From Escherichia coli (GTDB lineage Bacteria; Pseudomonadota; Gammaproteobacteria; Enterobacterales; Enterobacteriaceae), in the NCBI RefSeq assembly GCF_003334405.1, contig NZ_QOWM01000001.1: a stretch of 64,000 bases of DNA. One strand, written 5' to 3'. A program made the position numbers. Shown in pieces: positions 1 through 2,375 of the stretch; the first letter of the stretch is position 1; the number at the start of each line of letters is the position of its first letter.

Positions 1-2375
1 ATATAGCTTATATATTATATTGTACAAAACACTATCACTCCTACCCTGTCTACTGTGCAGGATATTCTAAAGTTAATTCATCGGTAGATATCAAAGAGGA
101 AAAAATTAAATTTGATTGTTCACAAATAACAATAGTCACTGATTTTTTTAAAAAGTGGAAAGAAACGAAATTTTTTTATACATCGTCTATATGCGTTAAA
201 AGAAGTTTTTGGATTCAGAAAAATGTTTACTTCCCTGTCGAACACTTTACGGGGGAGGACCAATATGCGTGGTTTTGTTTGGCTCAACATTGTCATTTCG
301 TATATTTGCCACAACAAGTCGTTTTATATAAACAAGGTGTGGTGGGGCAATTATCCTCTTCGCGCCCAGTGACTATTGAAATCCATGTCCAAAAATTATT
401 AGAATTAGAAAAAAATATAATTTTAAAAAGAGACGTCTCAAAACTTATTGATAAAGAGTTTTGTTATGTAATTTCTAATAATTTTGTTGCATATCAGCGG
501 TTTTTAGGAGTGAAAATACTACAGAATAGATTGCGAGTACTCCTAAATTTTCACTGTGTGCTCAAATTAATATTTTCTTTTATAGCACCCAGATTTTACA
601 ATTATCTTAGAAACCGGCGTGATATAAATACATAGTTACTATATTTATCTAATGTGTAGACTCTCGTTAGCTGAATTTATTTCTATCGTAAAATCACTAC
701 ATACATTAATCCCCTGACAGGAGTAAACAATGTCAAAGCAACAGATCGGCGTAGTCGGTATGGCAGTGATGGGGCGCAACCTTGCGCTCAACATCGAAAG
801 CCGTGGTTATACCGTCTCTATTTTCAACCGTTCCCGTGAAAAGACGGAAGAAGTGATTGCCGAAAATCCAGGCAAGAAACTGGTTCCTTACTATACGGTG
901 AAAGAGTTTGTTGAATCTCTGGAAACGCCTCGTCGCATCCTGTTAATGGTGAAAGCAGGTGCAGGCACGGATGCTGCTATTGATTCTCTCAAGCCATACC
1001 TCGATAAAGGCGACATCATCATTGATGGTGGTAACACCTTCTTCCAGGACACCATCCGTCGTAACCGTGAGCTTTCTGCAGAAGGCTTTAACTTCATCGG
1101 TACCGGTGTCTCCGGCGGTGAAGAAGGTGCGCTGAAAGGTCCTTCCATTATGCCTGGTGGGCAGAAAGAAGCCTATGAACTGGTTGCGCCGATCCTGACT
1201 AAAATCGCCGCAGTGGCTGAAGACGGCGAGCCATGCGTTACCTATATTGGTGCCGATGGTGCAGGTCACTATGTGAAGATGGTTCACAACGGTATTGAAT
1301 ACGGCGATATGCAGCTGATTGCTGAAGCCTATTCTCTGCTTAAAGGTGGCCTGAATCTTTCCAACGAAGAACTGGCGCAGACGTTTACCGAGTGGAATAA
1401 CGGTGAACTGAGCAGCTACCTGATCGACATCACCAAAGATATCTTCACCAAAAAAGATGAAGACGGTAACTACCTGGTTGATGTGATTCTGGATGAAGCA
1501 GCAAATAAAGGTACGGGCAAATGGACCAGCCAGAGTGCGCTGGATCTCGGCGAACCGCTGTCGCTGATTACCGAGTCTGTGTTTGCACGTTATATCTCTT
1601 CTCTGAAAGATCAGCGCGTTGCCGCGTCTAAAGTTCTCTCTGGCCCGCAAGCGCAGCCAGCTGGCGACAAGGCTGAGTTCATCGAAAAAGTTCGCCGTGC
1701 GCTGTATCTGGGCAAAATCGTTTCTTACGCTCAAGGCTTCTCTCAGCTACGCGCCGCGTCTGAAGAGTACAACTGGGATCTGAACTACGGCGAAATCGCG
1801 AAGATTTTCCGTGCTGGCTGCATCATCCGTGCGCAGTTCCTGCAGAAAATCACCGATGCATATGCCGAAAATCCGCAGATCGCTAACCTGCTGCTGGCTC
1901 CGTACTTCAAGCAAATTGCCGATGACTACCAGCAGGCGCTGCGCGATGTCGTCGCTTATGCAGTACAGAACGGTATCCCGGTTCCGACCTTCGCCGCTGC
2001 GGTTGCCTATTATGACAGCTACCGTTCTGCTGTTCTGCCTGCGAACCTGATCCAAGCACAGCGTGACTATTTCGGTGCACATACTTATAAGCGCATTGAT
2101 AAAGAAGGTGTGTTCCATACCGAATGGTTGGATTAATCTGATCTAACTAACAATAAAATTGAGGCCCGGCGTATATTGTGCCGGGCTTTTTTTTGCCAAT
2201 TATCTTATAGACTAAATTTCACTGCTTAATATTAACTTAATAAATATCAGCTATTCTTATAAAGAAAATCTGAATTGTTTTTCGTTGCGTTGACCATCGA
2301 ACAACGTAGCGTTAAAACTTTTAGCTCTTATCAGGATGCTAAAAACATCATGATTCACAGTTAAGTTAATTCTGA

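Follow-up and report, generated by a model that had tools for sequence, protein, structure and literature searches.

The question raised by this locus is whether the AT-rich gene end at the left edge of the analysed DNA marks the border of a serotype-specific O-antigen cluster and, if so, of which one. The stretch (hereafter the window) comprises 64,000 nucleotides of Escherichia coli contig NZ_QOWM01000001.1 (assembly GCF_003334405.1) and opens inside a reading frame upstream of gnd. A preliminary description had placed a sharp shift in base composition at ~640-730. The step itself is real: positions 1-635 contain 31.0% GC and gnd (730-2136) contains 50.7%, with 47.6% for the entire window; among 634 overlapping 635-bp windows taken along the 64 kb (minimum GC 0.309, median 0.485), the lowest values were found in those starting at positions 1 and 101. 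Its position, however, had to be moved. The 94 bases between the stop codon and gnd (636-729) are 30.9% GC, and when positions 600-760 were aligned with three non-O144 E. coli genomes, shared sequence started at ~713 (CTGACAGGAGTAAACAATG), ~15 bp 5′ of the gnd ATG. Because the spacer 636-712 matches the gene in AT content and is cluster-specific, the compositional boundary is at about 713-729, not at 640. A second low-GC stretch (about 35-36% GC in 635-bp windows) was seen at 40400-41900, surrounding a regulator gene of the YebC/PmpR family (40823-41539, - strand) and the 5′ end of an AMP nucleosidase gene.

On the + strand, frame 3 is free of stops between base 3 and a TAG codon at 633-635, a length of 210 codons. 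None of 20,000 shuffles of the same 635 bases kept a frame open, so that positions 1-635 represent coding sequence running in from the left edge. Judging from sequence, these bases very probably encode residues 104-313 of a 313-aa inverting glycosyltransferase of GT2 type with a GT-A fold, which ends a Wzx/Wzy-dependent O144 O-antigen cluster. The features on which the argument draws are the following.

1-635, + strand: 3′ two-thirds of the GT2 gene, codons 104-313 plus the TAG stop, the frame starting at base 3 (open frame, PF00535).
252-260, + strand: codons of G187-E188-D189, the 'ED' motif of GT-A/GT2 enzymes (31-sequence family alignment).
636-712, + strand: spacer of the O144 cassette, AT-rich (31% GC) and unalignable with the three non-O144 genomes.
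713-729, + strand: conserved gnd leader with the ribosome-binding site CTGACAGGAGTAAACA, its columns invariant against the three non-O144 genomes.
730-2136, + strand: gnd (6-phosphogluconate dehydrogenase), a housekeeping gene that flanks the cluster (ORF call, annotation of matching genomes).
2161-2199, + strand: intrinsic-terminator-like hairpin with T run after gnd (consensus match only).
2385-3551, + strand: ugd (UDP-glucose 6-dehydrogenase; ORF call, annotation of matching genomes).
3698-4675, + strand: wzzB, the O-antigen chain-length determinant (annotation; called at 14005-14982 of L013, the identical locus described below).

Core sequence common to E. coli of other serotypes begins with the 713-729 leader. 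In the preceding spacer (636-712) we found no terminator-like or strong promoter-like site, and a promoter scan of it did not exceed shuffled expectation. The hairpin after gnd has a 13-pair stem with 7 G-C pairs and is followed by TTTTTGCC; this strong terminator-like element, its hairpin at 2161-2189 ahead of the T run, sits near the start of the gnd-ugd spacer (2137-2384), which is itself AT-rich (29-33% GC). The wzzB product works with the Wzx/Wzy pathway, and downstream of wzzB the his operon follows on the opposite strand. The chromosomal backbone is that of E. coli, since the best-matching complete genomes share 99.4% identity with window 20001-26000. The same interval is covered to at least 80% in one place by only 56 of 5,426 complete E. 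coli genomes; at 24511-25886 (+ strand) it carries an ISL3-family transposase in the form of two overlapping ORFs (247 aa and 223 aa), and the gene is probably frameshifted because the first ORF covers just positions 1-215 of the 370-position profile. Farther downstream (46383-52948, - strand), two adjacent ORFs of 1233 aa and 955 aa, which overlap by 4 bp, both match intimin/inverse-autotransporter adhesin models, and the pair resembles a yeeJ-type adhesin gene broken into two frames.

Codons 1-103 of the GT2 gene (about 306 bp) lie upstream of the window. The full 313-aa protein (MKLSFVIPLFNKEK...) was rebuilt from two identical sources. One, L005, is a 1,999-bp contig picked up when metagenome contigs were scanned with a degenerate DNA pattern encoding GEDQYAWFC; in reverse complement it coincides with window 1-1103 at 0 mismatches and extends a further 896 bp upstream. 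(A second metagenome match, L006, was rejected as unrelated, having an 11-residue motif alone in common.) The other, locus L013 of E. coli GCA_003334405.1 (contig QOWM01000001.1), equals window 1-10635, again with 0 mismatches. The upstream part of L005 encodes, 5′ of GT2, the C-terminal 196 aa of a very hydrophobic protein, which shares 33% identity with the 503-aa protein encoded upstream of the closest relative of GT2 and 29% with a flippase of MatE type.

The entire cluster was read from L019, an upstream extension taken from an assembly identical to the window. Its order is galF, ops, wzy, three GT4 genes, manC, manB, a pyruvyltransferase gene, wzx, GT2 and gnd, with galF at 7499-8392, the cluster at 8738-19727 and gnd from 19822 (L019 coordinates); the GT2 gene overlaps wzx by four bases, and the wzy product belongs to the EpsG family. 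The preliminary description had taken the low-GC gene end for the 3′ boundary of the serotype-specific O-antigen cluster, and this is borne out: the gene is the last one of the galF-to-gnd cluster. The low-GC island spans 11.4 kb, from ~8,400 to ~19,800 of L019, at 25-40% GC compared with 51-58% outside. A lower GC content is the general rule in O-antigen clusters, notably in the processing and glycosyltransferase genes (PMC7685785).

The ops 8-mer GGCGGTAG has one match in the 21-kb locus, at L019 8678-8685 within the 345-bp galF-wzy spacer; the match is statistically weak, as at least one occurred somewhere in 19 of 100 shuffles of the locus. JUMPStart/ops elements upstream of the first gene make transcription RfaH-dependent. 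A 92-aa ORF called on the - strand of the same spacer (L019 8429-8707) overlaps the ops match and is probably a spurious gene call.

The serogroup follows from the neighbours of GT2. The exact 505-aa Wzx is named 'O144 family O-antigen flippase' by NCBI (UniRef A0A0A8J8R6), and the exact 402-aa Wzy 'O144 family O-antigen polymerase' (UniRef A0A0A8J6V2). GT2 itself corresponds exactly to UniRef A0A0A8J665 (A0A0A8J665_ECOLX, 'Glycosyl transferase', E. coli), occurs on 132 public contigs and was recovered in 259 blocks of public assemblies by exact-sequence look-up of the 313-aa protein. The O144 assignment derives from the names of these identical proteins in NCBI and UniRef, not from an HMM match; NCBIfam assigned no family to full-length Wzx or to the pyruvyltransferase. 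The feature is already known, as the GT2 gene that closes the O144 O-antigen cluster catalogued for E. coli. Reference O-antigen clusters of all 184 serogroups were compiled by Iguchi et al. (2015; PMC4379981), and O144 is not mentioned explicitly in the main text of that study or in DebRoy et al. (2016; PMC4732683). With Wzx and Wzy named O144, and with GT2 showing no detectable similarity to the wbb region of K-12, the gene set is unlike that of K-12, as had been supposed. The partial frame had also been said not to match K-12 wbbL, and the full protein agrees with this: tblastn against the K-12 gnd-wbbH region (NC_000913.3 2099000-2107000) gave no match at E<=10. Nor does the frame belong to a gene outside O-antigen synthesis, as it encodes the GT2 glycosyltransferase at the end of the O-antigen cluster.

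The 210 aa encoded within the window matched no Pfam or NCBIfam model, because the nucleotide-binding half of the enzyme is encoded upstream. In the full protein, PF00535 (Glycos_transf_2) matches residues 4-108 with E=8e-27, and the top HMMER matches of the fragment were family-2 glycosyltransferases of ~310 aa (PF00535), to whose residues ~105-314 it aligns. An alignment of 31 family members showed N11, K12, D42, D43, S45, D47, G73, A77, R78, N79, G81, D94, D96, D97, F180, E188, D189, Y212 and L235 to be invariant; these include the nucleotide-binding aspartates and the DXD and ED motifs of GT-A enzymes, and G187 is conserved in at least 90% of the 31 sequences. Invariant residues fall inside the window from F180 onwards only, so that the ED motif (E188-D189, 255-260) is the only catalytic motif it encodes; G187-E188-D189 is what we take, from general knowledge of GT2 enzymes, to be the catalytic-base region.

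An AlphaFold2 model (mean pLDDT 93.7, pTM 0.91) has a Rossmann-like beta/alpha core, after which residues 230-312 form a helical C-terminal third that is encoded entirely in the window. The top PDB matches in Foldseek were all GT2 enzymes (5HEA, RmlT, TarP, TarS and SpsA; E 1e-15 to 1e-11, TM 0.55-0.69), and sequence search returned the same set of structures; the predicted fold is GT-A. Among the NCBIfam equivalogs none reached its cutoff (best 81 bits vs 423), so that none assigns a donor or linkage. Relatives at 41-44% identity occur in further O-antigen or K loci of enterobacteria, one of which repeats the wzx-GT2 arrangement.

We propose the following role, the steps of which are taken from established knowledge of the Wzx/Wzy pathway; the data presented here show the position and gene order, the family and fold, the identity to catalogued O144 sequences and the purifying selection. 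At the cytoplasmic face of the inner membrane, GT2 would add one sugar to the undecaprenyl-diphosphate-linked O unit. It would bind the nucleotide sugar through the D94-x-D96-D97 motif and a divalent cation, with E188 and D189 acting around the acceptor hydroxyl, and the helical C-terminal third may form the variable part that faces acceptor and membrane. Wzx would then flip the finished unit and Wzy would polymerise it, with WzzB setting the chain length, before its ligation to lipid A-core. As the cluster contains no initiating transferase and four glycosyltransferases, the O unit is probably a WecA-initiated pentasaccharide; manC and manB point to mannose among its sugars, and a pyruvate ketal is probably present as well.

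A review of E. coli O antigens gives no structure for the O144 polysaccharide (PMC7685785), and we found none in the later literature. The O144 type strain is rough, i.e. without O antigen, although its cluster looks complete (PMC7685785); it is for this reason that the structure is unpublished, and with it the linkage made by GT2. Outside the O144 lineage, GT2 is at most 44% identical to any glycosyltransferase. That it makes a linkage to which no characterised enzyme is assigned is conceivable, though we lean slightly against it.

The rough type strain also raises the possibility that GT2 is an inactive remnant, i.e. that the O144 cluster is silent or defective and the ORF has no part in a surface polysaccharide; point mutations that inactivate an enzyme could go unnoticed in a sequence survey (PMC7685785). 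Several observations speak against this, and we regard it as very unlikely. Many independent assemblies carry the ORF intact and without a single difference, and every catalytic residue that is invariant in the family is present. Comparison with the E. albertii copy gave dN/dS = 0.13 (0.10-0.28 for the other cluster genes), which argues for selection on GT2 for function. Furthermore, O144:H25 is a serologically recognised enteroinvasive serotype (PMC8767346), implying that the O144 antigen is expressed in field strains.

Nor do we think that this cluster makes a capsule, be it a group 1 K antigen or a colanic-acid-like exopolysaccharide, instead of LPS O antigen. The closest species-named relative of GT2 (P0002 of Raoultella terrigena, 42% identity) does sit in a wza-wzb-wzc K-type locus, and pyruvyltransferases are common in capsule and exopolysaccharide loci. 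However, wza, wzb and wzc are absent between galF and gnd, ordinary colanic-acid genes ending in wcaM precede galF in L019, wzzB follows ugd, and the wzx and wzy found here are those used to define O144. Together these points render the capsule reading exceedingly unlikely.

There is next to no chance that the gene comes from a previously unsequenced, novel O-antigen genotype without close relatives in public data, as null searches had suggested (blastn against 5,426 complete E. coli genomes with window 1-729, in megablast and 11-mer modes, and with the 896 bp preceding it; tblastn against 72,556 plasmids; a word-index search of 5.8 billion protein clusters) along with a HMMER search of 1.84 billion cluster representatives (62 matches, the best only 41% identical), since exact-sequence look-up and the identity with L013 refute it and the identical protein, in its 259 assembly blocks and on its 132 contigs, adjoins the O144-named Wzx and Wzy.

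The reason why a gene of the catalogued O144 cluster escaped these searches lies in the libraries. In the 90%-identity clustering of proteins, the cluster to which GT2 belongs is represented by a 505-aa Wzx (P0135), with which GT2 shares no similarity. The same cluster holds P0144 (PPQ53582.1), a 781-aa gene call from E. albertii in which the two are fused: residues 1-482 are Wzx (98% to P0135) and residues 480-781 are GT2 (96%). This fusion bridged two neighbouring genes into one cluster, and searches of representatives only were consequently blind to GT2. At the DNA level, local BLAST with DUST on matched window 1-729 at 100% in every carrier; CP065611.1, a complete genome with the O144 cluster, is absent from the 5,426-genome collection, and blastn found nothing there because that collection holds no O144 carrier. 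A single fused gene call thus made a well-known GT2 look novel in three independent searches, a warning that an entire family can be concealed in clustered protein libraries when its representative is unrelated.

The compositional boundary before gnd was compared with the point at which carriers of the cluster part company. The spacer 636-712 is identical in the other O144 carriers (L013-L018), and a comparison of six carriers over the cluster and window 1-986 showed 0-3 differences per 500 bp. L015 and L018 depart abruptly at window 987, which lies in gnd, and L016 departs at about 2762, which lies in ugd; two O144 carriers remain close for >8 kb. The first ~257 bp of gnd were co-inherited with the O144 cassette in each of the six. 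The evolutionary boundary, as placed by these alignments, is given in other carriers by the recombination junctions of the cassette, which fall within gnd or ugd and differ by lineage.

The practical yield is the O genotype of this strain. O144 is most familiar as a serogroup of enteroinvasive E. coli, in which O144:H25 is a recognised serotype (PMC8767346, PMC6156305). The finding places the window in the chromosome, and beyond annotation its importance is small; two minor points reach further, namely the O144 structure with the specificities of its four glycosyltransferases, and the above warning on clustered protein libraries.

Compared with known systems, the closest counterpart is the E. 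coli O144 cluster (Og144) itself, from which the GT2 protein sequence shows no detectable difference; wzx upstream, gnd downstream and the gene order were the same in all carriers fetched. In K-12 (O16), WbbL is likewise encoded by the last gene before gnd and is by annotation an O-unit glycosyltransferase (a rhamnosyltransferase); wbbL is interrupted by IS5, whereas the O144 GT2 ORF is intact. Among enzymes of known structure, the likeness to CgT/GalT1 of Streptococcus (5HEA), RmlT of Listeria (8BZ4-8), TarP and TarS of S. aureus and SpsA of B. subtilis (1QG8) lies in the predicted GT-A fold and the conserved DXD and ED motifs. In contrast, identity to these proteins is just 16-20%, their acceptors are teichoic acids or other molecules, and the helical region at the C-terminus is peculiar to the family of the present GT2.

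A further comparison is with E. albertii, whose O144-type cluster (BBM63081-BBM63089, GCA_008326625.1; L022) has the same gene order. Its genes are 94-98% identical to those of E. coli (L013) at the nucleotide level (dS 0.07-0.15); for GT2 the value is 96.1%, with 13 amino-acid differences, and the spacer before gnd (636-729) differs at 2 of 94 positions. The flanks are more divergent, with 91.4% identity in gnd (dS 0.45) and 87.1% in ugd (dS 0.82). Because gnd and ugd are so much more divergent than the cluster, the cassette was exchanged after E. coli and E. albertii separated. Sequence comparison therefore indicates that recombination moves the cassette together with the spacer and, in many cases, the first part of gnd, and that the junctions fall in the housekeeping genes on either side. 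Exchange through flanking housekeeping genes is the classical picture for the galF-gnd locus. The low GC content and the abrupt step before gnd would reflect the foreign origin and horizontal exchange of the cassette as a whole.
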